A stretch of 64,000 nt of DNA from Candidatus Curtissbacteria bacterium (GCA_030647775.1 JAUSJC010000010.1:136718-200717); one strand, 5' to 3'; shown: positions 35,588 through 64,000, numbered from the stretch's first letter. Made by a program: numbers and translations. Notes: generated from the letters alone by a model not told the origin.

Positions 35588-35613
35588 TCCTAATTTAACC
35601 TCAAAGACAGATG

Positions 35614-35819: not shown

Positions 35820-36254
35820 ATGGCACAAGTTTCTAAATACCCATTAAACAAAGAAACACAAACGAGATTATATAAACTCCTCTGGCAAGCTATTGTTGCC
35901 CTTAAAGAACCTATCGAAACCGAAGAATTTTTTAATGACCTTTTAACTTCAACAGAAAAGATTATGCTCGCCAAAAGATTAGCGATAGCAGTAATGCTAA
36001 TTAGAGGCTATGATTACGAATCCATAAGAGCGCATCTAAGAGTTAGCCCTGGAACAATTAACTCTGTCTCTACATGGTTAAAATATTCTGGAAGCGGTTA
36101 TAAGGCGACTGTTGAAAGACTATTGAAAAAAGAGAAAGTGGATAATGTATTTGCAAGCATCGAAACCGCCCTAAAAGTTATCAAGCCTGAAAAAACAATT
36201 AGCCGTGCTCTTGCTAAAGGTTATCCCGAGCCAAAAAGAAAAGAACCTTTTTAA
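35820..36254 (+). CDS. TrpR/YerC-YecD family helix-turn-helix protein
   Basis: 144 aa. LLTSTEKIMLAKRLAIAVMLIRGYDYESIRAHLRVSPGTINSV matches the TrpR-like YerC family. Confidence 0.65.
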   Translation: MAQVSKYPLNKETQTRLYKLLWQAIVALKEPIETEEFFNDLLTSTEKIMLAKRLAIAVMLIRGYDYESIRAHLRVSPGTINSVSTWLKYSGSGYKATVERLLKKEKVDNVFASIETALKVIKPEKTISRALAKGYPEPKRKEPF

Positions 36255-47029: not shown

Positions 47030-47030
47030 A

Positions 47031-47481
47031 CTTTTAGGAAGAGAGTAAGCCAGATTCTGTTTGGAACAGATCTGTCTTGCGATAGTTCCATCCTTACGGA
47101 TGTAGTACCTATCTAAAGCCAGATTCTGTTTTAGCAATCATCTATCTCTAAACGATATTTATCATCTAGTCAGCGTTTTAAGCTGATGCCCCTATTTAGA
47201 ACCTCCCCAAAGCTTGGTAGTAACGGTTCTGTTCTGGGTTGCAGCAGGGAGGATTGCCAGCGTTTCACTCGTCAGTCTTATCTTTCGATTTAGACTGTCG
47301 CTCGTCTCTGTGGCTCTCAAGTTCTGTTAACTCAGAACCCGTCCAAATCAATTTCTCAATTCGGCACTAGCGCTTTTACACGTCGGAACTTACGTTCCAT
47401 CCCTTGCTTTGTGCTGTCTGGACTTTCCTCCCCGCCTAAATATTCAATTTTTGGCGGGGCGATTGCCCTTCTTCCTAAAAG
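47031..47481 (-). ncRNA. rnpB: RNase P RNA
   Basis: The minus strand carries GGGCAAUCGCC (P2), ccccgcc...ggcgggg (P3), GGAGGAAAGUCCAGAC (P4 5' strand) and ACAGAAUCUGGCUUA (P4 3' strand). P1 is a 12-bp pairing of 47470-47481 with 47031-47042. An AGAUAGAUGAUUGC block resembles type-B RNAs. Confidence 0.8.
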
Positions 47482-47871: not shown

Positions 47872-50703
47872 ATGATTCACGAAATCAGAGTTATTTCTAA
47901 GAGTGAGACGGATCCTAGAGGGCAGGATCTTCTGGAGGAAATCCGAAGAACCCTAAAAATTAAGTCGATCAAAAATATTCGCACTGCCAAGGTTTATCGT
48001 TTGGAAGGCGTAACCCGCGCGCAGGCTCTTGTTTTTGCCCAAAAAGTTTTAGTCGAACCTATCGGCCAGCAGATGTCTATCGGCCGATCAGCCTTAAAAG
48101 GAGCGGCAAAAACCATCGAAGTAGCTTATAAACCAGGCGTCATGAACCCGGAAGCCGCATCGCTTATAAAAGCCGGCAAAGACATACGTGTAAACCCAAA
48201 AGCAGCAGATTCTTCATGGGAATATGCTTTCTTCGGAAAGTTATCACAAGACGAGCTGGCGGAAATTACTGAAAGGTTGCTAGTCAATAAAACGGTTGAA
48301 TACGTTGTCAAAACTTCTCCAAAAACTCTTCTTATTACAGGTACCATTGGAGACATCAAAACAATTCCGATCAGGAATTTAGATACGGGAAAGTTGATGG
48401 AACTTTCAAAAGATAAGCTCTTCTTAAATTTGGAGGAGATGATGATTTTAAAAAATTATTTCCAAAAAATTAAAAGAGATCCAACAGATTGTGAGGTAGA
48501 AACTATTGCCCAGACTTGGAGCGAACACTGCGTTCATAAAACCTTTAAGGCAAAGCTTGTAATCGACGGCAAAAATAAAGAACCGTTATTTTCCCGAATT
48601 AAAAAAACAGTTAAAAATAATCCGGCACTTATTGTCAGCGCTTTTGTTGATAATTCCGGAGTCATTGATTTTTATGACGGATACGCTATTTGTGGTAAAG
48701 CTGAAACCCACAACAGCCCTTCAGCTATCGAGCCCTATGGTGGGGCAATGACCGGTTCCGGCGGAGTCTTCCGCGATGTTCTGGGAACCGGTCAGGGCGC
48801 AAAACCAATCATTTCTACAGACATCTTTTGTTTTGCGTCTCCCAATATGCCCCCAAAATTACTGCCCCCGGGTTGTTTGCCGCCTGATTATTTGCTGCGA
48901 AAGGTTGTAGCCGGAGTTCGTGATTATGGCAACCGCGTTGGTATCCCGACCAATAATGGATCAATCCATTTTCATAACGATTTCAGGGCAAAGCCTACTG
49001 TGGCAGTTGGCGCTTTTGGTTTGATTCCCAAAAATCGGGCCCAAAAAGGTAAACCCAAAAAAGGTGATCTCATCTTAACTCTTGGTGGGAGAACCGGCCG
49101 TGATGGCATCCATGGTGCAACATTTTCTTCGGGGGAAATGACATCTCAGACCATTTCTGTTTCCGGTTCAGCTGTTCAAATCGGCAACGCCATTGAAGAA
49201 AAAAGAGTCATAGATACCATTATTCACCTGCGAGACCTCGGTCTAATTGTCGCTGTTACGGATTGCGGAGCCGGTGGATATTCGTCGGCTGCCGGAGAAA
49301 TGGGTCAAGTTGTTGGCGCCCGTGTTTATCTGGAAAAAGTTCCTCTCAAATATCCCGGCCTTGCCCCTTGGGAAATATTTCTTTCAGAGTCTCAGGAAAG
49401 AATGGTTATTGCCACTGATCAAAAAAACCTCAAGAAAGTATTAGAAATTGCCAAACTCTACAATGTCGAGGCGACCGTAATCGGAAATTTTGACGGATCA
49501 AAGAAACTTCATGTAAGTTACAAAAATAAAACAGTCTGTTCTTTGAACATGGACTTTTTACATAGCGGTTTGCCTCAGCGCCGAATGGTTGGTAGGTCGA
49601 AGAGAGTGGCCATCGGAGGGGAATTACCGTCCGTTCCTAAAGATTTAGAAAAAATATTTTTGCGGATTTTATCTCACGGCAATGTTTGCTCCAAAGAACC
49701 AATTGTCCGTCTTTACGATCACAATGTTCAAGGGACAAATGCTATGCACCCATTTGGTGGAGTGGACTTTGATGCTCCGAATGACGGGGCGATTGTCCGC
49801 CCGATTCTTTCTAAACCATACGGAGTTGTAGTAACTCATGGCCTGAATCCAGCCCTTAACAACCTTGATCCTTATTGGGGAAGCATTTGGGCTCTTACTG
49901 AAGCCGTTTCCAATTTTGTTGCCATTGGCGGGAAAATAAAAGATGCAGCCTTAATAGACAATTTTATCTGGCCATTCCCGGATGAAGAATCTTTGGCAGC
50001 ACTAGATAGCGCGGTCGACGCACTTTGTTTCTTGGCCAAAATTTTAAAAATGCCCTTTATTTCCGGTAAAGATAGCCTGTCTTCAACTTACAGATATCCG
50101 GACGGAAGAATCTTAAAAATACCTCCGGTCGTTTTAATTTCCGTTTTCGGAAAAATTAAAGACGTTGCTAAAACTGTCAGCTCTGATTTCAAAAAAGTAG
50201 GGTCAACGATTGTGCTGGTTGGTAACCCCGACGTTAAAAATCTTGGTGCTTCCGCTTATTTTGATATTACAAACTCATCGTCACCTAGTATCCCTAAAGT
50301 CGACACTAAAAATATAAATAAAGTTTTAGAAAGCATCTCTCAGGCAGTTGAAAGCGGACAAATTCTCTCCTGTCACGATATCTCCGAAGGCGGTGTTGCA
50401 ACAACTCTTGCAGAAATGGCTTTTGGGGGCGGATGTGGAGCAAGCATCAATATAGCCAAAATTACCAAAGGAAGACCGGATTTTGTTTTATTTTCTGAAA
50501 CAGCTGGAACCTTTTTAGTAGAAGTCGAAAGTGTCCAAATCGCCAAAAAGGCTTTCGCCGGCGTTCCTCACAAAATAATAGGCGAAACTCAGGAGGAAGA
50601 AATAATCGAAATTAATGCCGGCCAAAAGACTTTATTAAAAACACCAATCAAAAAGTTAAAAAATGCTTGGCAAAAACCGATGAAGGAGATTTTTCACCAG
50701 TGA
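47872..50703 (+). CDS. purL: Phosphoribosylformylglycinamidine synthase PurL with fused N-terminal PurS-like domain(s)
   Basis: 943 aa. The N-terminal ~170 aa are PurS-like (IRVISKSETDPRGQDLLEEIRRTL...VYRLEG). The PurL core follows from ...TWSEHCVHKTFKA. Confidence 0.9.
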   Translation: MIHEIRVISKSETDPRGQDLLEEIRRTLKIKSIKNIRTAKVYRLEGVTRAQALVFAQKVLVEPIGQQMSIGRSALKGAAKTIEVAYKPGVMNPEAASLIKAGKDIRVNPKAADSSWEYAFFGKLSQDELAEITERLLVNKTVEYVVKTSPKTLLITGTIGDIKTIPIRNLDTGKLMELSKDKLFLNLEEMMILKNYFQKIKRDPTDCEVETIAQTWSEHCVHKTFKAKLVIDGKNKEPLFSRIKKTVKNNPALIVSAFVDNSGVIDFYDGYAICGKAETHNSPSAIEPYGGAMTGSGGVFRDVLGTGQGAKPIISTDIFCFASPNMPPKLLPPGCLPPDYLLRKVVAGVRDYGNRVGIPTNNGSIHFHNDFRAKPTVAVGAFGLIPKNRAQKGKPKKGDLILTLGGRTGRDGIHGATFSSGEMTSQTISVSGSAVQIGNAIEEKRVIDTIIHLRDLGLIVAVTDCGAGGYSSAAGEMGQVVGARVYLEKVPLKYPGLAPWEIFLSESQERMVIATDQKNLKKVLEIAKLYNVEATVIGNFDGSKKLHVSYKNKTVCSLNMDFLHSGLPQRRMVGRSKRVAIGGELPSVPKDLEKIFLRILSHGNVCSKEPIVRLYDHNVQGTNAMHPFGGVDFDAPNDGAIVRPILSKPYGVVVTHGLNPALNNLDPYWGSIWALTEAVSNFVAIGGKIKDAALIDNFIWPFPDEESLAALDSAVDALCFLAKILKMPFISGKDSLSSTYRYPDGRILKIPPVVLISVFGKIKDVAKTVSSDFKKVGSTIVLVGNPDVKNLGASAYFDITNSSSPSIPKVDTKNINKVLESISQAVESGQILSCHDISEGGVATTLAEMAFGGGCGASINIAKITKGRPDFVLFSETAGTFLVEVESVQIAKKAFAGVPHKIIGETQEEEIIEINAGQKTLLKTPIKKLKNAWQKPMKEIFHQ

Positions 50704-51473
50704 CAAAACCTAAAGTTTGTATTTTGAGGACTGACGGCACCAATTGCGACGAAGAACTTTTCTATGCGTTCGAAAAATTCGGCGCATCTCCGAAATTTGT
50801 CCATGTAAATGAATTGAGGGGCAAAAGTAAACGCTTAAAAGAATTTAATATCTTAGCGCTTCCCGGAGGGTTTACTTATGGGGATGATGTCGCCTCCGGG
50901 AAAATCTTGGCGGTAGAACTTGTTAGTTTTTTGAAAAATGAAATAGAAGATTTCGTCGCCAAATATGGACTGGTCATTGGTATCTGCAATGGATTTCAAA
51001 CTCTAATCAGAACTGGCCTTCTGCCATTTACGAAATTCGGCCAAATGGATGCAACCCTCGCCCAAAACGAGAGCGGCCATTTTGAATGCCGCTGGATTAA
51101 AGTAAAAGTTCAAAAAAGTAAGTGCGTTTTTTTACCCCAGTCAAATGAAATTTTTGACATTGCAGTTAATCACGGGGAAGGCAGAATTGATGCTCCCCAA
51201 AATATCATCAAGAAGATTGAGAATGAAGATCTTGTCGTTTTAAAATACGTTGATGAAAAAGGAAACCCAACCCAAAAGTATCCCCAAAATCCAAACGGAT
51301 CGGTGAATGCCATTGCCGGAATTTGCAACCAAACAGGGAGAATTTTAGGCCTTATGCCTCACCCGGAAAAATTTGTTGACGCTACTCAATACCCAAATTG
51401 GAGAAGATCAGTTAGTGGTAACTCTCCGGGCTTTATTATAAAAAACATGGTAAAATTCGCCCAAAGCTCATGA
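50700..51473 (+). CDS. purQ: Phosphoribosylformylglycinamidine synthase glutaminase subunit PurQ
   Basis: GTG start overlapping the purL stop (GTGA). KVCILRTDGTNCDEE...GICNGFQ...HPE. Confidence 0.9.
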   Translation: MTKPKVCILRTDGTNCDEELFYAFEKFGASPKFVHVNELRGKSKRLKEFNILALPGGFTYGDDVASGKILAVELVSFLKNEIEDFVAKYGLVIGICNGFQTLIRTGLLPFTKFGQMDATLAQNESGHFECRWIKVKVQKSKCVFLPQSNEIFDIAVNHGEGRIDAPQNIIKKIENEDLVVLKYVDEKGNPTQKYPQNPNGSVNAIAGICNQTGRILGLMPHPEKFVDATQYPNWRRSVSGNSPGFIIKNMVKFAQSS

Positions 51474-52564
51474 AAAAAATAACTTATGCCCAAGTCGGCG
51501 ATGATTATGACACCAAAGACCCTGTCAAAAAATTAGCACAGCTTGCGGCCCGCCAGACAATCATAAAAGAAAAATCGGGTTTCAAAGAAATTTCCGACAG
51601 TCGCGGAGAATCCGCTTTTGTCTGGGAGCAAGATGGTATTTTAATGGCATCCGTAGTCGAAGGGCTCGGCACCAAAAACCTAGTCGCCGACGCAATGCGC
51701 AGTGGCGCCAAAACGTATTACGATGTAATTGGATACGATACGGTTGCAACTATTATTAATGACCTGATTACGGTTGGAGCAAAACCGCGCGTGGTTCATG
51801 CGTATTGGGCAATCGAAGATAACAGCTGGTTAGAGGATAAAAGGAGGATGATTGATTTTATAAATGGTTGGCGCGAGGCTTGCATAATATCAATGGCGAC
51901 TTGGGGTGGAGGAGAAACACCAACGTTAAAAGGTGTTATAGAAAAGGGAACGATAGATTTAGGCGGGTCAGCCTTTGGGGTTATAGGAGATAGAAAGCGA
52001 CTTATAACAGACAAAAAATTAAAGGCAGGAGATAGAATAATCCTAGTTAAATCAAACGGTATCAACTGTAATGGGCTTTCACTGGCAAGAGCAGTTTCCA
52101 GAAAATTGCCAAATGGTTATCAGACAAAACTTCCAAGTGGAAAAACTTATGGTGAAGCACTTTTAACTAAAACAAACATTTACGCCAAACTCATCCAGAA
52201 TCTTTTAGATGCGGATATTGATATTCATTACATTTCTAACATTACCGGGCATGGATTAAGGAAGGTCATGCGGGCGCGAGGCAACTTCACTTATATTATA
52301 GATAAGATCTTTAAGCCTCAAGAGATTTTTACTTTTATCCAAAAACATGCAAATCTTTCAGATGACGAAATGTATCAAACATTTAATATGGGTCAAGACT
52401 ATGCGCTTTTTATTCAAGCCGAAGATGTAATAAAAACTCAGGAGATAATAAGAAAAAATAGATTTGAGAGTCTTGATGCGGGCTATGTTGAAAAAGGTCC
52501 TCGCCGAGTCATTATTAAACCGAAAGATATAATCTTTGAATCCGAAACATTAGACCTTAGATAA
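51470..52564 (+). CDS. purM: AIR synthetase (PurM-family)
   Basis: YAQVGDDYDTKD N-terminus and VEGLGTKN motif, both AIRS-family. Placement in the cluster supports PurM. Confidence 0.75.
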   Translation: MKKITYAQVGDDYDTKDPVKKLAQLAARQTIIKEKSGFKEISDSRGESAFVWEQDGILMASVVEGLGTKNLVADAMRSGAKTYYDVIGYDTVATIINDLITVGAKPRVVHAYWAIEDNSWLEDKRRMIDFINGWREACIISMATWGGGETPTLKGVIEKGTIDLGGSAFGVIGDRKRLITDKKLKAGDRIILVKSNGINCNGLSLARAVSRKLPNGYQTKLPSGKTYGEALLTKTNIYAKLIQNLLDADIDIHYISNITGHGLRKVMRARGNFTYIIDKIFKPQEIFTFIQKHANLSDDEMYQTFNMGQDYALFIQAEDVIKTQEIIRKNRFESLDAGYVEKGPRRVIIKPKDIIFESETLDLR

Positions 52565-52567
52565 AAA

Positions 52568-53050
52568 CTACTGTGCACTTGGTGTGGCCGAAGGTGTGGT
52601 GCTTGCCGGAGCCACAATACACGGTTCCAGTTTTGCTTTTTCGTCTGCAGTAAGAACCGAAGTGTCACCCCTTGTCATAACTCTTTGAATCGCATCTTGC
52701 GACAGTGCCTGTTCTGTACAGGCAATATTTACCTTTCCTACACCCGGCAGGTCAGCTTCGGTTTGAGGTTGTGTTTGAGAAACAGGGGCTTGAGCTTTGC
52801 TAAAAATGCCGTTTAAAAATCCCTGTTTAACACTTTGAAGTACGACGAGTGATGCAAAAAGCCCGACGAATATCCAAATTAGAAGAAAAATAGTGGCAAG
52901 ATAAATATTTACCTTTTGGAGTTTTTCAGTGTAATTAATTTTAAGAATAGAAATTCCCCTCTTTAGAGAAATCTCATTATTCGAGATATTTCTTTCTGTA
53001 GATTTTTTTAGTGGCATTATTTTTTGGGGGCAGAAATTAGAATTATGCAA
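52568..53050 (-). CDS. Hypothetical single-pass membrane protein
   Basis: 160 aa; TM helix LATIFLLIWIFVGLFASLVVL; C-terminal T/P/S/A-rich tail. Confidence 0.35.
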   Translation of the reverse strand: MHNSNFCPQKIMPLKKSTERNISNNEISLKRGISILKINYTEKLQKVNIYLATIFLLIWIFVGLFASLVVLQSVKQGFLNGIFSKAQAPVSQTQPQTEADLPGVGKVNIACTEQALSQDAIQRVMTRGDTSVLTADEKAKLEPCIVAPASTTPSATPSAQ

Positions 53051-53402
53051 ATAACTTTAACCTAAAGCTAAAGTAAAATCAAGCAGCAAGCCAACTATCC
53101 CTTAACTGGGACTTTAATGTCTTTGACAAGCTTTATCCCAATGCCGGCGATGTTAGATCCGCTCGAAGCAATAAATACCATTAAGAGATAAAAGTTGGCG
53201 CTTCAACATTAAATACTTGCGACGGTTTACTTTTCCTGGTCAGTACATTGGAGATTAAAAAGATAAGGAGAATGATCATCAAGACTCCCGCCGCCAAAAG
53301 CACATAGCCAATTATTTTATCGACTTTAATATCCCCAATTCCCACCGTATAAAAACTATAGCCTTTTTTGCATTTTTTGGAAAACCAGAGTAGAATACGT
53401 CA

Positions 53403-54416
53403 ATGGAGGCCTACAAACGCTACAAAATTGCAACTCTGGGCTCTCACTCCGCCCTGCAGATATTAAAAGGCGCCCACGACGAAGGATTTAAAACCCTCTT
53501 GGTTTGTACTTCCGACCGCATCTCACTTTACGGACGCTTTAATTTTATCGACAAAATAATCGAAATTAAAAGCTATTCGGATTTTCCAAAAATCGAAAGT
53601 ATACTAATAAAAGAAAAGGCAATCATTATTCCCCATGGCTCCTTTGTTGCCTATTTAGGGCTGGAAGAAAATAAGAAAATGAAGGTTCCTTACTTTGGCA
53701 ATAAAAAAGTCCTAGATTGGGAATCGGACCGGCTTAAACAAAGGGAATGGATGGAAAAAGCGGGAATCCCTGTCCCCCGAAAATATAATACACCAAATGA
53801 AATTGATAAACCCGTTCTTGTAAAAACATATGGTGCTGCCGGCGGTCATGGATACTTTTTTGCTAAAAACAAAAAACAATTTGCCCTTCGTATTAAAAGT
53901 CTTAAAAACAAACCGCATCTTATTCAAGAATATGTTATAGGTGTCCCGCTTTACATTCATTATTTTTATTCGCCACTTACCGATAAACTTGAGATCCTTT
54001 CAATTGATAAACGCTATGAAACCAACGTTGATTCGCTTGGCCGTATCCCCTCGCAAAACCAGCAAGGTTTAGGTATAGAACCTTCATTTGTAGTGGTTGG
54101 CAATAGCCCGCTCGTTCTTAGGGAATCGCTTTTAGCAGATGCCTTTGAAATGGGTGAAAGGGTAGTAAGGGAATCTAAAGAACTAATGCCGGGTGGTTTA
54201 TGGGGTCCTTTTTGCCTGGAAACGATTATCACCCCCCAGCAAAAGTTTTATATCATTGAGATTTCCTGCCGCATCGTTGCCGGGACTAACCTTTTTATTA
54301 ACGGGTCACCGTATGCTTCCCTTTATTACGACAAGGAAGTTTCTACGGGCCGTCGAATTGCTATGGAGATTAAAGACGCGATCAAATCGAAATCCTTGGC
54401 TAAAATTTTAAATTAA
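53403..54416 (+). CDS. purP: Archaeal-type FAICAR synthetase (PurP), paralogue 1
   Basis: IATLGSHSALQILKGAHDEGF, IIPHGSFVAYLG, YFGNKKVLDWESDR, YIHYFYSPL, DKRYETNVDSLGRIP and GPFCLE align along the full length with Methanocaldococcus PurP (MJ0136), recalled from memory. Confidence 0.85.
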   Translation: MEAYKRYKIATLGSHSALQILKGAHDEGFKTLLVCTSDRISLYGRFNFIDKIIEIKSYSDFPKIESILIKEKAIIIPHGSFVAYLGLEENKKMKVPYFGNKKVLDWESDRLKQREWMEKAGIPVPRKYNTPNEIDKPVLVKTYGAAGGHGYFFAKNKKQFALRIKSLKNKPHLIQEYVIGVPLYIHYFYSPLTDKLEILSIDKRYETNVDSLGRIPSQNQQGLGIEPSFVVVGNSPLVLRESLLADAFEMGERVVRESKELMPGGLWGPFCLETIITPQQKFYIIEISCRIVAGTNLFINGSPYASLYYDKEVSTGRRIAMEIKDAIKSKSLAKILN

Positions 54417-54417
54417 T

Positions 54418-55695
54418 ATGAAAAAATCACTTAAAAATTGGCAAGGGGTAACAGCCATTATCGGAGTCGATTGGGGAGATTCCGGCAAAGGTAGAATTAT
54501 CGACGATTTGGCTCAAAATGCCGATGTCGCTGCGCGTTTCAATGGTGGCGCGAATACTGGCCACACAATAGAGAATAACTTTGGTAAGTTCGCGCTCCAC
54601 ATTGTTCCATCGGGAATCTTTAATAAAAAAACAATCTGCCTCGTCGGTCGAGGCGTTGCCTGCGACCTGGAATCTTTAATCGACGATGAATTCAAACAAT
54701 TAAAAAAAGCGGGAGTTTCATGGCGAAACTTAATAATCGACCCGTCGGCAACTTTGACCATGCCGTGGCACAAGTTAAAAGATGGCCTTCGGGAAAATAC
54801 CCGCAGACAAAAAATCGGCACTACCGGCAGGGGAGTCGGTCCTGCTTATGCCGATAGAGTCGAAAGGGTAGGTCTACAAGTAGGCGATCTTTATAAAAAT
54901 GATTTTTCGAAGTTATTGAAAGAAGAAATCGATTTTCAGAATAAATATTTTGCTCTAGAACTTTCGTATCAAAAAATTCTAACTCAATTCCAAAATTATG
55001 CCAAAGTTACCAAACCACTTATTGGCAGGACAATACCTATTATGCAAAAAGCCATTCAAAAAGGCCAAAATATCCTTTTTGAAGGGGCACAAGGGTGGCT
55101 TTTGGATGTTGATGCCGGTACATACCCTTTCGTTACATCTTCAAATACGGGAATCATCGGTATTTGGAAATCATTTGATCTTCATCCCAAAAAAATCAAC
55201 AACATAATTGGTATTACCAAAGCTTACACAACGCGAGTCGGTGCCGGGCCCATACCCACCAAAATAGAAGGGCGAGAAAGGCAATTAATCATAGAAAAAG
55301 GTCACGAAATTGGCACCACATCCGGTCGGACTCGGGACCCCGGTTGGCTAGATCTGGTTTTATTAAAAGCGGCAGCCGAAGTTAATGGAGTAAATCAGCT
55401 GGCTCTTACCAAACTGGATATTTTTTCAGGTTTCAAAAAAATCAAAATTTGTGTCGGCTATACGATTGGTGATAAAAAAGTTGATTATTTGTCAGGAAAT
55501 GCCGACTTCTTATCAAAATGTAAACCTGTTTATATGGAATTAGATGGTTGGAAAAAAGATATCTCTAAAATAAGAAAATTTACCCTACTTCCAAAAGCCG
55601 CCCAAAATTATATAAGAACTATCGAAAAAATAACGAACGTACCAATCACATTTATAGGTGTGGGTCCAAAAAGGGAAGAAGTAATTTATGTCTAA
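54418..55695 (+). CDS. purA: Adenylosuccinate synthetase
   Basis: VTAIIGVDWGDSGKGRIID, GANTGH and GTTGRGVGPAY motifs. Confidence 0.95.
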   Translation: MKKSLKNWQGVTAIIGVDWGDSGKGRIIDDLAQNADVAARFNGGANTGHTIENNFGKFALHIVPSGIFNKKTICLVGRGVACDLESLIDDEFKQLKKAGVSWRNLIIDPSATLTMPWHKLKDGLRENTRRQKIGTTGRGVGPAYADRVERVGLQVGDLYKNDFSKLLKEEIDFQNKYFALELSYQKILTQFQNYAKVTKPLIGRTIPIMQKAIQKGQNILFEGAQGWLLDVDAGTYPFVTSSNTGIIGIWKSFDLHPKKINNIIGITKAYTTRVGAGPIPTKIEGRERQLIIEKGHEIGTTSGRTRDPGWLDLVLLKAAAEVNGVNQLALTKLDIFSGFKKIKICVGYTIGDKKVDYLSGNADFLSKCKPVYMELDGWKKDISKIRKFTLLPKAAQNYIRTIEKITNVPITFIGVGPKREEVIYV

Positions 55696-56779
55696 AAAAT
55701 CACAAAAACCCACAATTGCCGTTTTAGGCAGTCACAGTGCTCTTGATGTTTGTCGTGGCGCCAAGGACGAAGGTTTTGACACTCTGGTTGTTGTTGAAAA
55801 AGGCCGCGACAAAACTTATGCAAACTATTTTAAATCAAATGGCTCTTTAGGTTGCGTCGACGAAGTTCTATACGTCGAAAAATTTAAGGATATCCTAAAA
55901 CCAGAAATCATAAAAATCCTCAAAAGCAAAAATGCGATTTTCATTCCCCACAGGTCATTTGAAGTTTACATTAACAATTACGATGCTATAGAAAACGATT
56001 TTGACATTCCAATTTTTGGCAATCGCAGACTCCTGCGTGTAGAGGAAAGGACTGAAAAACCAAATCAATACGATCTTTTACAAAAAGCGGGTATTAGATT
56101 TCCTAAACAATTTAAAAGCCCAAACGATATCGACCGCCTGGTAATAGTAAAAGTCTTAGAAAATGAGCGAGGTTTTGAAAGAGCATTTTTTGTAGTCAAT
56201 TCAGTAGGCCAATATGAGGCAGAGTCGCAGAGATTGATCAAAGATGGAAGAATTACAAAGAAGGCCCTTGAAGAAGCAGTTATAGAAGAATTCCTTTTAG
56301 GAGTTCAGGTAAATTATAACTTTTTTTATTCCTCTCTCCATAATAGATTAGAACTGATCGGTACGGATACTAGAAGACAAACAAACTTAGATGGATTTAT
56401 AAGATTACCAGGAATTTATCAACATCAAGTTAGGGATAACGTCACTTACGAAGAGGCGGGTCACATTGCTGTAACAACGCTCGAGTCACTTTTAGAACCG
56501 GCTTTCGAAATCGGTGAAAGATTTGTAAATGCCGCGAAGGAAATGTTTACTCCGGGGGTTATCGGACCATTTAGTTTGCAGGCAGTTGTAACGCCCGGTC
56601 CGCCTAAAAAAGAAATAGTAGTTTTTGATGTATCACCAAGAATGCCGGGGAGCCCGGGAATCTTTGCTACACCTTATTCAGGCTATCTTTACGGGCAATC
56701 AATATCTATGGGAAGGCGAGTTGCCATTGAAATTAAAAATGCTTTAAAATCCAAGAAACTTTCTAAAATCACAACATGA
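55688..56779 (+). CDS. purP: Archaeal-type FAICAR synthetase (PurP), paralogue 2
   Basis: IAVLGSHSALDVCRGAKDEGF, FIPHRSFEVY, IFGNRRLLRVEER, YNFFYSSL, DTRRQTNLDGFIRLP and GPFSLQ. It is clearly paralogous to 53403-54416. Confidence 0.85.
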   Translation: MSKKSQKPTIAVLGSHSALDVCRGAKDEGFDTLVVVEKGRDKTYANYFKSNGSLGCVDEVLYVEKFKDILKPEIIKILKSKNAIFIPHRSFEVYINNYDAIENDFDIPIFGNRRLLRVEERTEKPNQYDLLQKAGIRFPKQFKSPNDIDRLVIVKVLENERGFERAFFVVNSVGQYEAESQRLIKDGRITKKALEEAVIEEFLLGVQVNYNFFYSSLHNRLELIGTDTRRQTNLDGFIRLPGIYQHQVRDNVTYEEAGHIAVTTLESLLEPAFEIGERFVNAAKEMFTPGVIGPFSLQAVVTPGPPKKEIVVFDVSPRMPGSPGIFATPYSGYLYGQSISMGRRVAIEIKNALKSKKLSKITT

Positions 56780-58182
56780 GCAAAATTGATTTTACAAATT
56801 ACCAATCACCATTTTCCTGGCGTTATGGCTCGCAGGAGATGCGCCGGATATTTTCCGAAGTAAACAAGCGAAAAACTTGGCGCAAAGTTTGGGTAGCTTT
56901 AGCAAAAGCCCAAAAAAAAGCTGGACTTTTAACAGATGATGAATTCAACTCCATTAAAAAAAATGCCGAGAATATTGATATCGAAAGAGCCCACGAAATC
57001 GAAAAAGAAATATACCATGATTTAATGGCCGAAATCCGCACGTTTGCCGAGCAGTCAGGTAAATCCGGCGGCAAAATCCATCTCGGTTCGACCAGTACTG
57101 ATATTGAAGATAACGCCCAAATAATAAATATTCACGATGCTCTAAATATCATTGAAAAAGAATTGATAGAGTTGCTTAAGAGTTTTGCCGTAAGTATTCA
57201 AAAATACCAAAATCTGATTTGTATGGGTTACACCCATCTCCAGCCGGCCGAACCGACGACCTTAGGATACCGTTTTGCCACCTATGCCCAGGATTTATTG
57301 AACGATTTAAAACTCTTAAGATTTTTTAGACAAAACTTGCGGGCCAAAGGCATGAAAGGGGCAGTCGGAACCAGCGCTTCCTACGTAAAGTTATTAGATG
57401 GTAAATCGATTGACGCTTTTAAAATGAGTAGGCAAGTTATGGCAGACCTGGGTCTTGCCGAAACAATAGTTAACTATCAAACATACCCCAGAAAAACCGA
57501 TTTACATCTAACTTTTGTCCTTTCCGGGATTGCCCAGTCACTCCACAAATTCGCTTTTGACCTGAGGATTATGCAGTCTCCAAACTTTGGCGAGTGGTCA
57601 GAACCCCGCGGAGAAAAAAGGGTCGGTTCGTCTGCCATGCCGTTTAAAAGAAATCCCGATAAAGCCGAAAAAATTTGCTCCCTTGCCCGTTATATTTCGT
57701 CACTTACCGATATCGCTTGGAACAACGCCGCAAACACTCTTCTTGAGCGGACTTTAGACGACAGTGCTTCAAGAAGAATTTTTATTCCGGAATCATTTCT
57801 GGCTGCAGACGAGATCTTAAAAGTTACTACCGAGCTAGTTAAAGGCCTAGTTATCTTTGAAAAAAGTATCAAAAGGAATCTGGAAAAATTCGGCCCGTTT
57901 GCCGCAACCGAAACACTGATGATGGAAGCGGTCAAAAACGGCGCTGATAGGCAAAAGATCCATGAAGTAATTCGCGAGATTGCCATGGAATCCTGGAACG
58001 CGATGAATGACGACAAAAGTAACCCCTTGGTTGAAATGCTTAAAAAGGATAAAATAATTACGAAGTTTGTGAAACCTGATAAAATTTCATTACTGCTCGA
58101 TCCTGCCAAACATACAGGTCTAGCCCCAAAAAGGTGCCTGATGTTTTTGAAAGAATTACAGATGGAGATTAAAAATGAATAA
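56776..58182 (+). CDS. purB: Adenylosuccinate lyase
   Basis: 468 aa. Fumarate-lyase signature GSSAMPFKRNP. Confidence 0.93.
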   Translation: MSKIDFTNYQSPFSWRYGSQEMRRIFSEVNKRKTWRKVWVALAKAQKKAGLLTDDEFNSIKKNAENIDIERAHEIEKEIYHDLMAEIRTFAEQSGKSGGKIHLGSTSTDIEDNAQIINIHDALNIIEKELIELLKSFAVSIQKYQNLICMGYTHLQPAEPTTLGYRFATYAQDLLNDLKLLRFFRQNLRAKGMKGAVGTSASYVKLLDGKSIDAFKMSRQVMADLGLAETIVNYQTYPRKTDLHLTFVLSGIAQSLHKFAFDLRIMQSPNFGEWSEPRGEKRVGSSAMPFKRNPDKAEKICSLARYISSLTDIAWNNAANTLLERTLDDSASRRIFIPESFLAADEILKVTTELVKGLVIFEKSIKRNLEKFGPFAATETLMMEAVKNGADRQKIHEVIREIAMESWNAMNDDKSNPLVEMLKKDKIITKFVKPDKISLLLDPAKHTGLAPKRCLMFLKELQMEIKNE

Positions 58183-58738
58183 GCAAAGCTTTTCTGCGAA
58201 TAAGCTGAGCTTTTCTACGAATAAGCCGCAAGTTGCAATTATCATGGGGTCAGATTCAGATCTGGAGGTCATGTCCGAAGCCGCCAAAGTTTTGGATGAA
58301 TTCGGTATCGGTTATGAAATTTTAATTCTCTCTACGCACCGCGCGCCCGACCAAACAGCACAGTATGCAAAAAGCGCTAAAGCTAAAGGCATAAAAGTAA
58401 TAATTGCCGGCGCCGGCGGGGCAGCTGCCCTTCCGGGTTCGATAGCGTCCTTCACACCTCTTCCGGTAATCGGCGTTCCCGTAAAGGCAAAATCTTTGGA
58501 CGGGATAGACTCACTTCTTTCTATGTTCCAAATGCCGCCGGGCGTGCCGGTAGCCGTTGTTGGTATCAATGGGGCCAAAAATGCCGGTATCCTTGCCGCT
58601 CAAATCATTGGCGCATCCGACCCAAAAATTTCAAAAAAGGTTGTCGAATATAAAGAAAAAATCAAAAAAGAAGTCCTGGCAAAAAACTTAAAAGTTAAAA
58701 ACATTGGCTGGGAAGCGTATTTAAAGGGGAAAAAATGA
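58175..58738 (+). CDS. purE: N5-CAIR mutase / AIR carboxylase catalytic subunit PurE
   Basis: VAIIMGSDSDLEVM...IILSTHRAPD...VIIAGAGGAAALPG. The N-terminus carries a 24-nt tandem duplication (SFSANKLSFSTNK). Confidence 0.9.
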   Translation: MNKQSFSANKLSFSTNKPQVAIIMGSDSDLEVMSEAAKVLDEFGIGYEILILSTHRAPDQTAQYAKSAKAKGIKVIIAGAGGAAALPGSIASFTPLPVIGVPVKAKSLDGIDSLLSMFQMPPGVPVAVVGINGAKNAGILAAQIIGASDPKISKKVVEYKEKIKKEVLAKNLKVKNIGWEAYLKGKK

Positions 58739-59706
58739 TAGATAAAAGACTTGTTATTAAAAATATCCCAAACGCCATAGATACAATCAATATTCCGAAA
58801 CTTGGAAAGAGAAATAGCGGCAAAGTCCGGGACTGGTACACAAAGGACAATCTGCGCATTCTTATTGCTACCGACAGAATTTCGGCTTTTGATAGGGTTT
58901 TGGGAACTGTCCCTTTCCGTGGAGCCGTTTTAAATCTCCTTTCAAAATTTTGGTTTGAAAAGACGCGAGATATTGTCCAAAACCACATGATTGGCACAAT
59001 TGATCCAAATGTTATGCTCGTTTCCGAGTGCCAAGCGCTCCCCGTTGAAGTTATTGTCCGCGGTTACATAACCGGTGTTACGCACACTTCGTTGTGGAGA
59101 AAATACTCCGAAGGGGAGAGAGTAATTTACGGCATAAAGTTTCCTGAAGGCTTAGTCAAAAACCAAAAACTCAAAAAACCGGTAATTACTCCGACTACCA
59201 GGGCAACCGCTCCGGGTGGGCATGATGAACCAATTACAGCAAAAGAGATTATAAAACAAAAATTAGTTTCCCCAAAAATTTGGAACCAAATCGAAAAAGT
59301 GGCAATTAAATTATTTGAAAGAGGTACTCGAATAGCCGATAAAGGCGGATTTGTTTTGGCAGACACTAAATACGAATTCGGCTTGGATAAGAACGGTAAA
59401 TTGATTCTAATTGATGAAATTCATACACCGGACAGCAGCCGTTTTTGGCTTAAAAGCACTTACAGGCAAAAATTTAAAAAAGGCGAAGAGGTAGAAAATT
59501 ACGATAAGGAAGTTATGCGAATATGGTTTGCCGACCAAGGGTATACCGGTCAGGGCAAACCGCCAAAATTATCAGCCGAAGTCGTAACGAAGGTAGCCGG
59601 ACGTTATATGGAAGTATACGAAAAATTAACCGGCGAAGAATTTAAGATAGACCTCTCCATTCCACAAAAAGAAAGAATCACAAGTAGTCTTGCCGCTTTA
59701 ATTTAA
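58735..59706 (+). CDS. purC: SAICAR synthetase
   Basis: GKVRDWY, TDRISAFD, DTKYEFG and HTPDSSRFW motifs. Confidence 0.92.
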   Translation: MIDKRLVIKNIPNAIDTINIPKLGKRNSGKVRDWYTKDNLRILIATDRISAFDRVLGTVPFRGAVLNLLSKFWFEKTRDIVQNHMIGTIDPNVMLVSECQALPVEVIVRGYITGVTHTSLWRKYSEGERVIYGIKFPEGLVKNQKLKKPVITPTTRATAPGGHDEPITAKEIIKQKLVSPKIWNQIEKVAIKLFERGTRIADKGGFVLADTKYEFGLDKNGKLILIDEIHTPDSSRFWLKSTYRQKFKKGEEVENYDKEVMRIWFADQGYTGQGKPPKLSAEVVTKVAGRYMEVYEKLTGEEFKIDLSIPQKERITSSLAALI

Positions 59707-61227
59707 ATGGTTGCCGTTTTTAATTTTGGAGGGCAATACGCTCATTTAATTGCTAGACGCATCAGAGAATTAGGTGTCAAAAGTGAACTAGTACTACCGG
59801 AAATTTCTTCTCGAGATTTACTTAAGCTTTCTCCACGAGCCTTAATTTTTTCCGGAAGCCCTTTTTCCTGCTACGAAAAAAACGCCCCTCAAGTCAACAA
59901 AAAAATTTACGATTTGGGATTACCTATTTTAGGTATTTGCTACGGTCAGCAGTTAATGGCTTATCAGCTGGGCGGCAACGTTTCACCTCACCAAGACAAA
60001 CAATTCGGCAAAGAAACAATTGAGGTAGTGGTAAGCCCCCTTTTTTCCGGCCTTGCAAGGCATGAGACCGTTTGGTTCTCTCATGGGGATCAGGTAGATA
60101 AACTCCCGGAAGGTTTTAAGATTATTGCGTCAACTAAAAATACCAAAGTCGCGGCTATGGCCAATGACCAAAAGAAATTTTACTGCGTGCAGTTTCATCC
60201 GGAAGTCGTACATACCCCAAAAGGCATGACGATTCTTTCGAATTTTCTTTTCAAGATTGCTGAAGTTAAAAAAGACTGGAATCTAAAAGAGGTCAAAAAA
60301 GAAATGATTACAACTCTTATAAAACAGACAAAAGACGAAAAAGTCTTAATAGCTATTTCCGGCGGGGTAGATTCTTTAGTTGCCGCAGCTCTTTTGAAAG
60401 AAGCAATCGGTACAAGACTTCACTTGCTCTTCATCAATACGGGGCTTCTTCGCAGTTATGATCTCCCCGACCTTGAAAATGTTATTACGAAAGTTAAATT
60501 CAAAAACTTTAAGATTGCCGACAAGGGGAAAGTCTTTTTGAATGCTTTGAAAGGGATTACCGATCCTGAAGAAAAGAGAAAAATTATTGCCGGAATTTAT
60601 TTCAAAACTTTGGAAGAAGAAGCCAAAAAGCTCGGTAATATCAAATTCCTTGGCCAGGGGACAATTTATCCGGACCGTGTCGAATCGGCTCAAACCTCAA
60701 AGCACGCCGACAAAATCAAAAGCCACCACAACGTTACACTCCCCTCGGGACTAAAGTTAGAGTTGGTAGAACCATTGTCAGAGTTTTACAAAGATGAGGT
60801 AAGGGCAATCGGTAAACTTATGGGCTTGCCTGGTGAGTTTCTAGGCCGCCATCCGTTTCCGGGCCCCGGGCTAGCAATCAGGATTTTAGGAGAAGTAACC
60901 ACAGAAAGGCTCGACATTTTAAGATTAGTCGACGCAATCTTTATTGAAGAGCTAAAACTTTCCGGATTATATAATAAGGTAGGACAAGCACTTGCCGCCC
61001 TTCTTCCCGTCAAATCCGTAGGGGTCATGGGGGATAGCCGCACCTACTCCTACATTGTTTCGCTAAGAGCTGTCGATACTATTGATTTTATGACAGCAGA
61101 CTGGTCAAAGATCCCATACGCAGTTTTGGAAAAGATATCTTCCAGAATCGTCAACGAAGTCCGCGGCGTTAATCGCGTCGTCTACGACATTACCCAAAAA
61201 CCCCCGGCCACCATCGAATATGAATAA
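59707..61227 (+). CDS. guaA: GMP synthase (glutamine-hydrolysing)
   Basis: N-terminal GATase; AISGGVDS PP-loop; C-terminal dimerisation domain. Confidence 0.95.
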   Translation: MVAVFNFGGQYAHLIARRIRELGVKSELVLPEISSRDLLKLSPRALIFSGSPFSCYEKNAPQVNKKIYDLGLPILGICYGQQLMAYQLGGNVSPHQDKQFGKETIEVVVSPLFSGLARHETVWFSHGDQVDKLPEGFKIIASTKNTKVAAMANDQKKFYCVQFHPEVVHTPKGMTILSNFLFKIAEVKKDWNLKEVKKEMITTLIKQTKDEKVLIAISGGVDSLVAAALLKEAIGTRLHLLFINTGLLRSYDLPDLENVITKVKFKNFKIADKGKVFLNALKGITDPEEKRKIIAGIYFKTLEEEAKKLGNIKFLGQGTIYPDRVESAQTSKHADKIKSHHNVTLPSGLKLELVEPLSEFYKDEVRAIGKLMGLPGEFLGRHPFPGPGLAIRILGEVTTERLDILRLVDAIFIEELKLSGLYNKVGQALAALLPVKSVGVMGDSRTYSYIVSLRAVDTIDFMTADWSKIPYAVLEKISSRIVNEVRGVNRVVYDITQKPPATIEYE

Positions 61228-61249
61228 CCACTAATATACTAGTATATTA

Positions 61250-61822
61250 GTGCCAAACAACATGAATAAAATTAGGCCAAAAGACCTGGTTGTCGTCACA
61301 AGCAATATTAGTAAACTGGCGGAGATTAATCAGATTCTTGGCACGAGTCACAAAGTATCAACGCTCGATGTCCCAGAAATCCAGTCACTCAATCTTAATG
61401 AAGTAATTACGGCTAAAGCAAAAACCGCTTACGAAAAAATTAAAAAACCGGTTTTAGTAACTGATGTAAGTTTAGAAATTGAAGCATTGGGAGGCCTACC
61501 CGGCCCATTCGTAAAATTCTTTCTAAAAACTTTGGGAGCCGAAAAAACCGTTAGCCTTATTAAAGGAAAGAACACTAAAACTAAAGTTACCGACGCCATT
61601 GCCCTCTACGACGGCAAAAGCCTCAAAATTTTTAAAGGTGAAGTTCATGGTCATTTAATATCAAAGGCCAGAGGCAGTCACGGTTTTGGATTCGACTTTG
61701 TTTTTGTTCCGGACGGATACGAAAAAACTTACTCCGAAATGTCACCAACAGAAAAAAATAAAATTTCCCACCGCGCCCTGGCATTAAAAAAACTCAAAAA
61801 ATATTTATCCCATGTATCTTAG
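61250..61822 (+). CDS. rdgB: Non-canonical purine NTP pyrophosphatase (Ham1/RdgB family)
   Basis: 190 aa. FGFDFVFVPDGYEKTYSEMSPTEKNKISHRALALKKL. Confidence 0.88.
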   Translation: MPNNMNKIRPKDLVVVTSNISKLAEINQILGTSHKVSTLDVPEIQSLNLNEVITAKAKTAYEKIKKPVLVTDVSLEIEALGGLPGPFVKFFLKTLGAEKTVSLIKGKNTKTKVTDAIALYDGKSLKIFKGEVHGHLISKARGSHGFGFDFVFVPDGYEKTYSEMSPTEKNKISHRALALKKLKKYLSHVS

Positions 61823-64000
61823 TGCCAAAATAAGATCCAGGGCCAGAGGTTCAACTCTCGCCAGAGCTGAAATAAAAACTCTAAAACCTTGTAAAGCCGT
61901 TTTTCTCCACCAGCCTTCCCTTTTTGCCCTAATATCTCCTTGGCCGGTGCAAAACCCTCCGCAGGTTTATCTGGTGCCGTACCAACGCTTCCGATAATCG
62001 GGCCTGTATTGACCTCATTGGAAAAAGCGCTCTTATTACCTATCTGGTCCAGCGCCGTAAGCGCAAAGTAGAAAGTCTCTGAAGGTAACCTTTTAACTTG
62101 ATAGCTGCCAACATTACCGACTTTTGCCGCAAAATCATATTTTGTGCCTTGTCTTCCATACCAAATAATATAGTCAATAGCATCTAAAACCTTTTCCCAC
62201 GATAAATAAACTGTTCCCTGACCAACCCCGCCCAAAGTCAAAGTTGGCTTGGCGGGTCCAGTCCGATCCACCCAAAGGTCAAGAGAGCTTGAAGATATAT
62301 TTCCTCCCCAATCATAAGCGTTCACGGTCACATAATACTTGCCTTCGCGTGTCAAACCGCGTATTAAGTATTCGGATGTCTTATTATCAACCTCCGCGGA
62401 TTTTTCTTCGCCGGTGGCTTCATGCTTCCATCGCACAATATACTTGACAAGCCTTAAATTATCGTCGGATTCTTGCCAGCTAACCTTAACCGAATCCAGA
62501 CTTGTTGGATTCGTTTCGGCTTTAAAATCTTTCGAGACAGTAGGTTTTGTTGTATCGGCGGAAGCAACAAAAGTAGTTAGGTGGCAGGCATCGATCCATA
62601 TGGTATTTGGCGAGTGACTTGTACCCATTTTCGCAGTACAGCCGGCCGCAGCCAACCCGCCTAAATCGTCATAACTTTGCCAACTGGAAAGCGTGTCGTT
62701 ATAAAAAAAGAAACCAACTAGCTGGTCTTTATTGGCAATATCAGAAGTGGGGAATTTGCTATCATTATAAGGAACTTCAAAGCGAATTGGCCAATTAATA
62801 CTTGCTCCCGAATTAACATCAACAGTGTAATAGGAATCGAAAGTAACAGCCTTTGTGTTAGTACCCTCAAGAGGTGAACCCGAGACTTGGCCCGCGACAA
62901 TTGTCGCCCCGCCGCTTCCGGCAGTTGCCTTAAAAGTCAACGTTCCAACAATTTTTGTAATTGAACCGCCAGGCCCTAAATTGACACCGCCCAAAACCTG
63001 ATAACTTTTTACACCGGAGGCAGTTACAATTGTGCTGTAATCTACTGTACCCAGACTGCTACTATCAACGCTATGAATAATAAGCCTTTCAATGTCGGCT
63101 AGGTTTCCGGTTCCCCAGTCATTGTTCTTGGCATCTATGGCTGTACTGCTTTGGTTATTAACCGCCACAGTATTATTGGTAAAAGTGTTATTGTTGACTA
63201 CCACAGCGCCCAAGACCCCTGCGCTTATGGCAATACCAGTAGCAAAATCGCCGATATTAGCATTCTTAACGGTTACCGACCCAGAGGCGATTGTTATACC
63301 AACCCCGCTTCCGCCGCCGGATAGGGTGTAATTGCCAGAATCTCCGAGTAGCGCGAGTGGTTTGCTAATGGTTAAATTTTCCGAGTAAGTACCCGGTCTT
63401 ACTTTAACTACTGCGCCGGAGTTTGCAATATCAATAGCTTTCCCAATCGTTTTATAACAAGGTGCTTGCAGATTACATGTAAAATCCGAAGTATCGGCAA
63501 AAACTAGATTGCGCGACGTTGGAGTATTGTTGGCAAGCCCCGCAGTCGGCAGCTCAAAAACTTGCCAGGTGGTGGATCCGTCAGTTACCCTACCAAAAGA
63601 TTCACCACTTCCAGTTGACCCCAAATTTTGGCCACTGGAACTATTAATAGTCAAGTTGTTTATATTATTGCTATTGTCATACTGAACCCGGTCGATAGTT
63701 GTACCAGAATTGTTGACCAGAAAAATATCCTCGACCCCGCTATTATTTAAAACATTCCCGCTGAAAGCAAAAGCCCTAACCTGGCCGGCAGCAATTGTTC
63801 CACTTAAGTTTATATCTGCCCCGCTGCCGGTAGCGTCCCTAATAGACCAATTGGTCAAATCCAAAGTGGAGGAAGAGTTATTATAGATTTCTACCCACTC
63901 CGGACCGCCAGCCGTTGGCTGGAAAACCACTTCATTTATTAGTACGCTTTGAGTTGTATCATTAACCGGATCCGTAACCACAAAAATCGCAGCCTCAATC
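61819..64000 (-). CDS. Large secreted/surface protein with lamin-tail domain, right-handed beta-helix and two FN3-like domains; N-terminus lies beyond the window
   Basis: The ORF stays open to the window edge. LTD: VLINEVVFQPTAGGPEWVEIYNNSSSTLDLTNWSIRD...GTIAAGQVRAF. Beta-helix repeats (GSVTVKNANIG...VVNNNTFTNNTVAVNN). Two FN3-like modules (VSWQESDD...YYVTVNAYD; VYLSWEKV...YFALTALD). Hydrophobic C-terminus. Confidence 0.75.
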   Translation of the reverse strand, partial: IEAAIFVVTDPVNDTTQSVLINEVVFQPTAGGPEWVEIYNNSSSTLDLTNWSIRDATGSGADINLSGTIAAGQVRAFAFSGNVLNNSGVEDIFLVNNSGTTIDRVQYDNSNNINNLTINSSSGQNLGSTGSGESFGRVTDGSTTWQVFELPTAGLANNTPTSRNLVFADTSDFTCNLQAPCYKTIGKAIDIANSGAVVKVRPGTYSENLTISKPLALLGDSGNYTLSGGGSGVGITIASGSVTVKNANIGDFATGIAISAGVLGAVVVNNNTFTNNTVAVNNQSSTAIDAKNNDWGTGNLADIERLIIHSVDSSSLGTVDYSTIVTASGVKSYQVLGGVNLGPGGSITKIVGTLTFKATAGSGGATIVAGQVSGSPLEGTNTKAVTFDSYYTVDVNSGASINWPIRFEVPYNDSKFPTSDIANKDQLVGFFFYNDTLSSWQSYDDLGGLAAAGCTAKMGTSHSPNTIWIDACHLTTFVASADTTKPTVSKDFKAETNPTSLDSVKVSWQESDDNLRLVKYIVRWKHEATGEEKSAEVDNKTSEYLIRGLTREGKYYVTVNAYDWGGNISSSSLDLWVDRTGPAKPTLTLGGVGQGTVYLSWEKVLDAIDYIIWYGRQGTKYDFAAKVGNVGSYQVKRLPSETFYFALTALDQIGNKSAFSNEVNTGPIIGSVGTAPDKPAEGFAPAKEILGQKGKAGGEKRLYKVLEFLFQLWRELNLWPWILFWH

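Follow-up and report, generated by a model that had tools for sequence, protein, structure and literature searches.

A paired class I and class II PurP as candidate AICAR-formylating unit of a Candidatus Curtissbacteria purine operon

We analyzed a 64-kb stretch of DNA (the window) from Candidatus Curtissbacteria, a lineage of the Microgenomates in the Candidate Phyla Radiation (CPR), in which a purine biosynthesis cluster at 47872–61822 encodes two proteins of the PurP family, here called PurP-A and PurP-B. On balance, sequence comparisons favor a purine operon in which 5-aminoimidazole-4-carboxamide ribonucleotide (AICAR) would be converted to FAICAR (5-formamidoimidazole-4-carboxamide ribonucleotide) by a class I and a class II PurP acting as a unit, which would most likely be a hetero-oligomer. 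Formyl phosphate would arise from ATP and formate, it would formylate the 5-amino group of AICAR, and the resulting FAICAR would then be closed to inosine monophosphate (IMP), feeding PurA/PurB and GuaA. A formate-dependent AICAR step, already put forward in a first-pass annotation of the window, appears the most plausible role for these proteins, and in a lineage without purH the pair would be the only candidate for AICAR formylation. The locus is no singular oddity; it is an ordinary, typical member of a widespread CPR operon.

Results

PurP-A and PurP-B represent two ancient classes

Both PurPs match the two domains of the family, DUF1246 (PF06849) and DUF1297 (PF06973), with E values from 1e-43 to 1e-69, and their alignments with the solved structures of archaeal PurP, 2r84 and 2r7k, span the full length, as the first-pass annotation had claimed; these matches fix the fold. 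The closest structure is 2r84 (Pyrococcus furiosus PF1517; 377 bits, E 1e-111) for PurP-A and 2r7k (M. jannaschii MJ0136; 249 bits, E 6e-73) for PurP-B. The two proteins are only 34% identical to each other; PurP-B is 55–59% identical to archaeal class II members, that is, more than to PurP-A.

According to Brown 2011 (PMC3261824), His27 and Arg314 of MJ0136 contact the formyl group, while Ser94 and Ser266 contact the AICAR phosphate. In PurP-A, His15, Ser80, Asn234, Ser242, Glu286, and Arg290 correspond to His27, Ser94, Asn258, Ser266, Glu310, and Arg314 of MJ0136. PurP-B keeps the formyl and phosphate contacts as H16, S90, S267, and R318 (His27, Ser94, Ser266, and Arg314), with His259 in place of Asn258 and Asp314 in place of Glu310. 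Judged by these residues, both PurPs look like working AICAR-binding enzymes. Loss of catalytic residues from both copies, which together with a canonical purH elsewhere in the genome had been named beforehand as refuting the first-pass reading, is not what we found; the substrate-contact residues are kept in both.

Brown 2011 (PMC3261824) distinguished cluster I, with Asn258 and a (K/R)GG(K/R)G loop, from cluster II, with His258 and a loop that is two residues longer and lacks the glycines. PurP-A has Asn234 and the loop VKTYGAAGGHGYF, which is of the right length and keeps all three glycines but, reading AGGHG, has both basic residues replaced. PurP-B has His259 and the 15-residue loop VKVLENERGFERAFF, two residues longer and carrying an ERAFF motif; the class I Asn258 and the glycine loop are both absent. 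A family census found 594 PurP members in a library of 1.84 billion representative proteins, and in 65 full-length representatives these hallmarks separated perfectly: Asn258 with a 13-residue GxxGGxG loop, or His258 with a 15–17-residue ERAFF loop. Among the class II sequences, His258 is present in 44 of 44, where it co-varies with the long loop, and Asp310 in 42 of 44; the invariant residues of the class include K155, E164, R165, H259, D314, and R318 (PurP-B numbering). Because class II has an invariant residue set of its own, PurP-B is not a decayed copy. The phylogeny that had been proposed as a check gave a consistent picture: in a neighbour-joining tree with 100 bootstraps, class I forms a clade (99%) with PurP-B outside it, the deeper nodes being weakly supported. 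By these criteria PurP-A is assigned to class I and PurP-B to class II, two ancient paralogue classes known from archaea. The specialization of the paralogues that had been suspected is reflected in the class-defining differences at Asn/His258, at Glu/Asp310, and in the glycine loop.

The PurP pair is a widespread two-gene module

We scanned one genome per GTDB species with PurP-B and found at least 590 relatives, the best match being 74%; the arrangement is not unusual. The following locus counts refer to the best 80 of these at least 590 relatives (individual loci are numbered with the prefix L). They include Curtiss-, Davies-, Gottesman-, Roizman-, and Woesebacteria and Levyibacteriota, and also Parcubacteria, Peribacteria, Dependentiae, Chloroflexota, DPANN archaea, and Methanosarcinales. 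About 76 of the 80 loci contain both PurP classes, and in these, as in the window, one class II gene occurs with exactly one class Ib gene; the clear exceptions are two Altiarchaeota loci with class II only. Spacing was scored in 72 loci; the genes share a strand in every one of these and are immediate neighbors in 56. Such a distribution suggests that both genes were transferred repeatedly as a single module. We regard the pair as an old module of two genes, usually side by side, that has moved together between archaea and bacteria.

The usual Microgenomates operon contains purF, purN, and purD (often fused), PurS-purL, purQ, PurP-A, PurP-B, purB, purE, purC, and purM in this order, with purH before purB and purK before purE in some loci. 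In the window and in the 11 Curtissbacteria-type loci, the PurP genes are separated by purA, a lineage-specific insertion of the Curtissbacteria. The two PurPs had been described as a duplication flanking purA, which is misleading, since they are only 34% identical; they are an ancient class I and class II pair, adjacent in most related loci, into which purA was inserted.

A search with homologues of the window genes and labelled flank families recognized no further pur gene within 10 kb of the pair in some loci of archaea and CPR. A gene for an ABC-transporter ATPase recurs beside the pair (L074, L075, L077, L079, L015, L016, L057, and L060), including loci with no other recognized pur gene. 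We also noted fused early-step genes in CPR purine operons: purN-purD fusions of about 630 amino acids (L003:1052-2944, L004, L010, and L026; the L003 form was checked against Pfam), and open reading frames (ORFs) of 707–735 amino acids with a PurF-type N-terminus, grouped with the purN/purD family, that look like purF-purN fusions (L036:268-2391, L047:672-2840, and L062:1405-3612). Many GTDB records under the title 'uncultured Gammaproteobacteria' (binchicken assemblies; L008, L010, L011, and about 35 other loci) contain purine operons typical of Microgenomates/CPR, as do one 'Methylomirabilota' and one 'Nevskiaceae' record (L036 and L074); these titles look like placeholder or wrong taxonomy.

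purH is absent from the window and lies inside the pair in close relatives

No match to purH was found in the 64-kb window by tblastn with two CPR PurH queries, and the cluster contains no known IMP cyclohydrolase. With CPR queries, tblastn likewise found no purF, purN-purD, purK, prs, or folD in the window; the first-pass annotation had correctly missed purH, purF, purD, and purN here. In relatives, a full-length bifunctional purH can lie inside the pair, in the order PurPA-purH-PurPB (L036, L048, and L084) or PurPA-purH-purA-PurPB (L027, L057, L082, and L083), so that all candidate enzymes for the last two steps stand together. One of these, on a 384-kb contig (L082), shares the upstream order recA-recX-rny-miaA-AI2E with the window and continues as PurPA-purH-purA-PurPB-HAD-purB-purE-purC-purF. 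At the corresponding place, the window has the end of PurP-A at 54416 and the start of purA at 54418; purH does not fit into this 1-nt gap, nor is a remnant of it present. The three close PurH homologues that we looked up are all located within a PurP pair, and the identity of close PurH homologues drops much faster than that of close PurP homologues. These two observations fit a loss of purH from this lineage rather than its relocation, a window-based reading that is no proof.

The cluster lies in a bacterial core region

The cluster runs in the order purL, purQ, purM, a small minus-strand ORF, PurP-A, purA, PurP-B, purB, purE, purC, guaA, and rdgB (Table 1). All eleven purine genes named in the first-pass annotation were confirmed by strong profile matches; the minus-strand ORF was missing from its list. 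This ORF has homologues at the same position in L002, L006, L007, and L011 and splits the cluster into two transcription units. From PurP-A through guaA the genes abut or overlap by 1–8 nt, with overlapping start and stop codons from purA through purC, and hence form one tightly packed unit. rdgB/Ham1 follows guaA in related Curtissbacteria loci too. Promoter and terminator counts equaled the shuffled expectation and are therefore uninformative on operon structure, and an Rfam search (E up to 1) found no riboswitch or leader RNA upstream of purL and PurP-A, the only hits besides the RNase P RNA being two chance-level small RNA matches.

The cluster covers de novo steps 4 to 8, with PurS-fused PurL plus PurQ, PurM, a class I-type PurE, PurC, and PurB, and also encodes PurA and GuaA as branch enzymes and, for house-cleaning, RdgB. 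The genes for the first three steps (purF, purD, and purN) and purK have probably either been lost or lie elsewhere, as relatives retain them within this operon or next to it.

Apart from the cluster, the window consists of a bacterial core region with rpoB, rpoC, fusA, tuf, L3, L2, secY, and adk, and further with rpoA including its bacterial C-terminal domain, recA, recX, rny, miaA, and a class A RNase P RNA. The placement of archaeal-type PurP genes on a bacterial ribosomal-backbone contig was thus upheld. The GC content is even over the whole window, a 9-kb Logan contig represents an independent assembly of the same locus, and PurP-B is 100% identical to a protein named 'DUF1297 domain-containing' on a 526,960-bp contig of an NCBI Candidatus Curtissbacteria metagenome-assembled genome (MAG).

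Table 1. Features of the 64-kb window from Candidatus Curtissbacteria
Feature	Coordinates	Strand	Evidence or remark
ORF, 298 aa (amino acids)	1825-2721	+	no Pfam match
ORF, 504 aa	12599-14113	+	no Pfam match; between rpoC region and fusA
tRNA-Pro(GGG)	35613-35684	-	
Trp-repressor-family protein	35820-36254	+	
PMT-family (dolichyl-phosphate-mannose type) glycosyltransferase	42163-43428	-	
ORF, 549 aa	43450-45099	+	no Pfam match
RNase P RNA, bacterial class A	47030-47478	-	92.6 bits, E 1e-28; just below the Rfam gathering score of 100
Promoter-like site	47518-47490	-	11/12 matches
purL, 943 aa, mdPurL type	47872-50703	+	TIGR01736 550 bits; PF18072 linker
purQ, formylglycinamidine ribonucleotide (FGAM) synthase glutaminase subunit	50667-51473	+	GATase_5 E 3e-78; TIGR01737 200 bits (cut-off 178)
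purM, aminoimidazole ribonucleotide (AIR) synthetase	51470-52564	+	AIRS + AIRS_C; TIGR00878 191 bits, under cut-off 236
ORF, 160 aa, hydrophobic segment	52568-53050	-	no Pfam match; between purM and PurP-A
PurP-A, 337 aa, assigned to class I (cluster Ib / 'PurP II', PF1517-like)	53403-54416	+	DUF1246 + DUF1297 E 2e-69
purA, adenylosuccinate synthetase	54418-55695	+	PF00709 E 4e-149; NF002223 472 bits (cut-off 402)
PurP-B, 363 aa, assigned to class II (cluster II / 'PurP III')	55688-56779	+	DUF1246 + DUF1297 E 4e-63
purB, adenylosuccinate lyase	56776-58182	+	TIGR00928 394 bits (cut-off 326)
purE, class I type by sequence	58175-58738	+	TIGR01162 203 bits (cut-off 150)
purC, succinylaminoimidazolecarboxamide ribonucleotide (SAICAR) synthetase	58735-59706	+	NF009251 396 bits (cut-off 371)
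guaA, guanosine monophosphate (GMP) synthase	59707-61227	+	NF000848 684 bits
rdgB/Ham1, non-canonical purine nucleoside triphosphate (NTP) pyrophosphatase	61250-61822	+	PF01725 E 5e-44; last gene of unit
Protein, 720 aa, lamin-tail and fibronectin type III domains	61819-63981	-	converges on operon end, overlaps rdgB by 4 nt

Some features of the surroundings deserve mention. The RNase P RNA, with 449 nt against a model of 367 positions, takes up the greater part of the seemingly empty 840 bp upstream of purL, and the best promoter-like site of the region lies directly upstream of it on the minus strand. Three sizeable ORFs are without a Pfam match, and the backbone also carries the tRNA, Trp-repressor-family, and glycosyltransferase genes listed in Table 1.

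PurL carries a PurS-like extension

The PurS-PurL fusion reported in the first-pass annotation was corroborated. When the first 190 residues of PurL were scanned alone, residues 8–64 matched PurS with 30.7 bits against a gathering threshold of 22.2, and the same match was obtained for 15 of 24 homologous PurL N-termini. A profile of PurL N-termini matched the PurS structures 1gtd, 2yx5, 8j3n, 1vq3, and 3d54_B over positions 79–150. Since residues 8–64 match Pfam PurS and positions 79–150 match PurS structures, we interpret the extension as two tandem PurS-like repeats (about 8–64 and 79–150). The repeats are followed by a formylglycinamide ribonucleotide amidotransferase (FGAR-AT) linker (180–223) and then by a small-PurL FGAM synthetase core, the PurQ glutaminase being a separate gene. 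The mdPurL form is known from some methanogens (Brown 2011, PMC3261824). As in that form, or in the N-domain of large PurL, the N-terminal ~200 amino acids replace a free PurS while PurQ stays separate; the PurL of the window differs from methanogen mdPurL in that its extension is resolved as two PurS-like repeats and the long form, of about 880–1045 amino acids, occurs in every related locus with a full-length purL.

PurE is of class I type with an altered 70s loop

The lone purE had been taken as a hint of a class II carboxylase. We rejected this assignment, as PurE scores 221 bits against the class I enzyme of T. maritima (1o4v) versus 57 and 43 bits against the class II structures 3rg8 and 2h31. 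PurE also passes TIGR01162 (203 against a cut-off of 150), and its 40s loop, STHRAP, contains the catalytic His of the SxHRxP motif. By its overall sequence, PurE is thus placed in class I. Its 70s loop reads GGAAALPG rather than GGAAHLPG, with Ala at the position of E. coli His75, and no purK partner is present in the 64-kb window.

In sister Curtissbacteria, purK lies directly upstream of purE. Among the surveyed loci, the Ala variant occurs only in Curtissbacteria-type operons without purK (10 loci, including L002, L003, L005, L007, L009, and L024, plus the window), often alongside the STHRAP 40s loop, and the loci with purK keep the 70s-loop His and SAHRTP in 12 of 12 cases. The Ala variant may represent a single evolutionary event, and because one event may explain all cases, its association with the absence of purK is a lead without statistical weight. 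Class I PurE without PurK is also found in methanogens, Desulfurococcales, and some Thermococci, which likewise combine a class I-type sequence with the lack of an adjacent purK; the PurE of the window differs from these in having Ala at His75, while sister genomes that keep purK keep the His.

Discussion

The pair described here resembles the archaeal pairs of cluster Ib and cluster II (P. furiosus PF1517 plus PF0421, and those of Sulfolobales, Archaeoglobus, and Methanosarcinales) in having one gene per class with the same class residues and loop lengths, in adjacency, in linkage to purB and other pur genes, and in the frequent absence of purO and of the cyclohydrolase domain of purH. It differs from them in its host, a CPR bacterium, in the inserted purA, and in a PurP-A P-loop without both basic residues (AGGHG). 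MJ0136 of M. jannaschii (cluster Ia, PDB 2r7k) is the only PurP with a measured FAICAR synthetase activity. The window PurPs share with it the ATP-grasp family (DUF1246 + DUF1297) and the residues His27, Ser94, Ser266, and Arg314, with Asn258 and Glu310 in PurP-A. However, MJ0136 works alone and occurs as a single copy, alongside PurO, whereas the window PurPs belong to two other classes, are paired, and have no PurO nearby. The proposed chemistry, in which ATP and formate would give a formyl phosphate that is passed to the amine of a purine intermediate independently of folate, is comparable to the bypass of PurN by PurT. Yet PurT, a formate-dependent glycinamide ribonucleotide (GAR) transformylase, is of another family and acts on another substrate; it is not present here, and relatives use PurN for the GAR step.

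Several observations weigh against a jointly acting FAICAR synthetase. Both proteins score under their NCBIfam equivalog cut-offs (PurP-A, 411.8 versus 580, NF009779; PurP-B, 297.9 versus 556, NF009780). In PurP-A both basic residues of (K/R)GG(K/R)G are replaced, and from PurP-B the glycine loop is entirely gone. No PurP-A/PurP-B fusions occur among 150 family representatives, the longest of which has 477 amino acids. The subtrees of PurP-A and PurP-B are similar in shape, but the mirror-tree correlation (r 0.73) is no higher than that of purE-purC (0.77) and so does not discriminate. Full-text searches retrieved no biochemical work on class Ib or class II PurP after Brown 2011, and none is known for any bacterial PurP. 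A full purH shares an operon with the pair in 25 of the 80 related loci, so the pair is not simply a replacement of purH, and a purH or purO gene could lie outside the 64-kb window. Finally, purN is kept in relatives' operons and folD in some; folate-dependent formylation has not been abandoned in the group, and the folate-free rationale that had been attached to the locus does not follow.

What the two proteins do could be divided differently. In one alternative, PurP-A alone would be the FAICAR synthetase and PurP-B would exert another activity on the same nucleotide, most attractively the closure of FAICAR to IMP, an idea already raised by Brown 2011 (PMC3261824). PurP-B indeed keeps the AICAR phosphate and formyl contacts but changes the carboxamide contact (Asn258 to His, in 44 of 44 class II sequences), Glu310 (to Asp, in 42 of 44), and the glycine-rich loop, which Brown 2011 (PMC3261824) suspected to be the ATP-binding P-loop; no IMP cyclohydrolase is found in this cluster, and 37 archaeal taxa have the pair only (Cruz 2019, PMC6486802). 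We nevertheless regard this division of labor as unlikely, given that the class I partner PF1517 was reported inactive alone (Brown 2011, PMC3261824), that ATP-grasp enzymes are ligases and not cyclohydrolases, and that a full purH adjoins the pair in many related loci. Somewhat more doubtful still is an obligate two-protein enzyme for both last steps, AICAR to FAICAR to IMP, in which PurP-B, with His258 and Asp310, would provide the cyclization; if true, it would fill the place of the long-missing IMP cyclohydrolase of Crenarchaeota, Pyrococcus, and purH-less CPR bacteria. The pair might instead have an auxiliary role as a bypass that uses formate, much as PurT bypasses PurN in E. coli, with PurH or another transformylase/cyclohydrolase encoded elsewhere in the genome. 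Such a back-up role accords with the joint occurrence of purH and the pair in those 25 operons, some of them of near relatives, and in 10 archaeal taxa (Cruz 2019, PMC6486802), and our purH search covered 64 kb, the contig being at least 527 kb long. It seems improbable to us, though, since purH is absent from the window, every one of the closest PurH homologues is found within the pair rather than at another site, the PurP homologues of this clade reach a closeness that few PurH proteins match, and the pair is strongly conserved in purH-less loci.

Two further explanations concern the origin of the locus. With two members of one family encoded on the same strand at a distance of 1.3 kb, one might think of a single purP that was recently duplicated in tandem around purA and then diverged. 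We rejected this very improbable scenario, which is refuted by the class assignments: the copies share 34% identity only, each is closer to archaeal members of its own class (PurP-B, 55–59%; PurP-A, 377 bits to PF1517), the class split has 99% bootstrap support, and the same two classes pair up in two domains of life. The description of PurP as an archaeal signature (Cruz 2019, PMC6486802) could likewise raise the suspicion that archaeal DNA was joined to a bacterial contig during assembly or binning. The chance of such contamination is negligible, and we rejected it, because GC content does not shift along the window, the PurP genes adjoin or overlap purA and purB of bacterial type, the Logan contig is an independent assembly of this locus, and dozens of CPR genomes from different studies show the arrangement again. 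Formylation of AICAR by the two PurPs as one unit accordingly remains the reading that we prefer, if by a limited measure of confidence.

It is often stated that CPR bacteria have no complete pathways for de novo nucleotide synthesis. Many Microgenomates operons nonetheless keep a near-complete de novo purine pathway, and about one in three CPR MAGs was reported as complete for de novo purine synthesis in module-based surveys (PMC11608272). In a survey of 1,403 complete genomes, PurP was found in archaea only and called an archaeal signature, and PurP II and III always co-occurred in archaea, which led to speculation about a heterohexamer (Cruz 2019, PMC6486802). A full-text literature search retrieved no paper naming purP together with CPR names; CPR PurP proteins are already named in database annotation. 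The published restriction of PurP to archaea is contradicted by the present locus, and, as the pair is found widely, nearly always as neighboring genes, in bacteria (Microgenomates, further CPR lineages, and Chloroflexota), PurP should be taken off the list of archaeal signatures.

The function of paired PurPs has been an issue since Brown 2011 (PMC3261824), who found PF1517 (class Ib) and PF0421 (class II) each to be without AICAR formyltransferase activity alone and considered one member of the pair as possibly the missing IMP cyclohydrolase. The strict pairing of the two classes makes this issue directly testable, and natural test cases are offered by Curtissbacteria that lack purH between the two PurP genes, where the pair would be expected to suffice.

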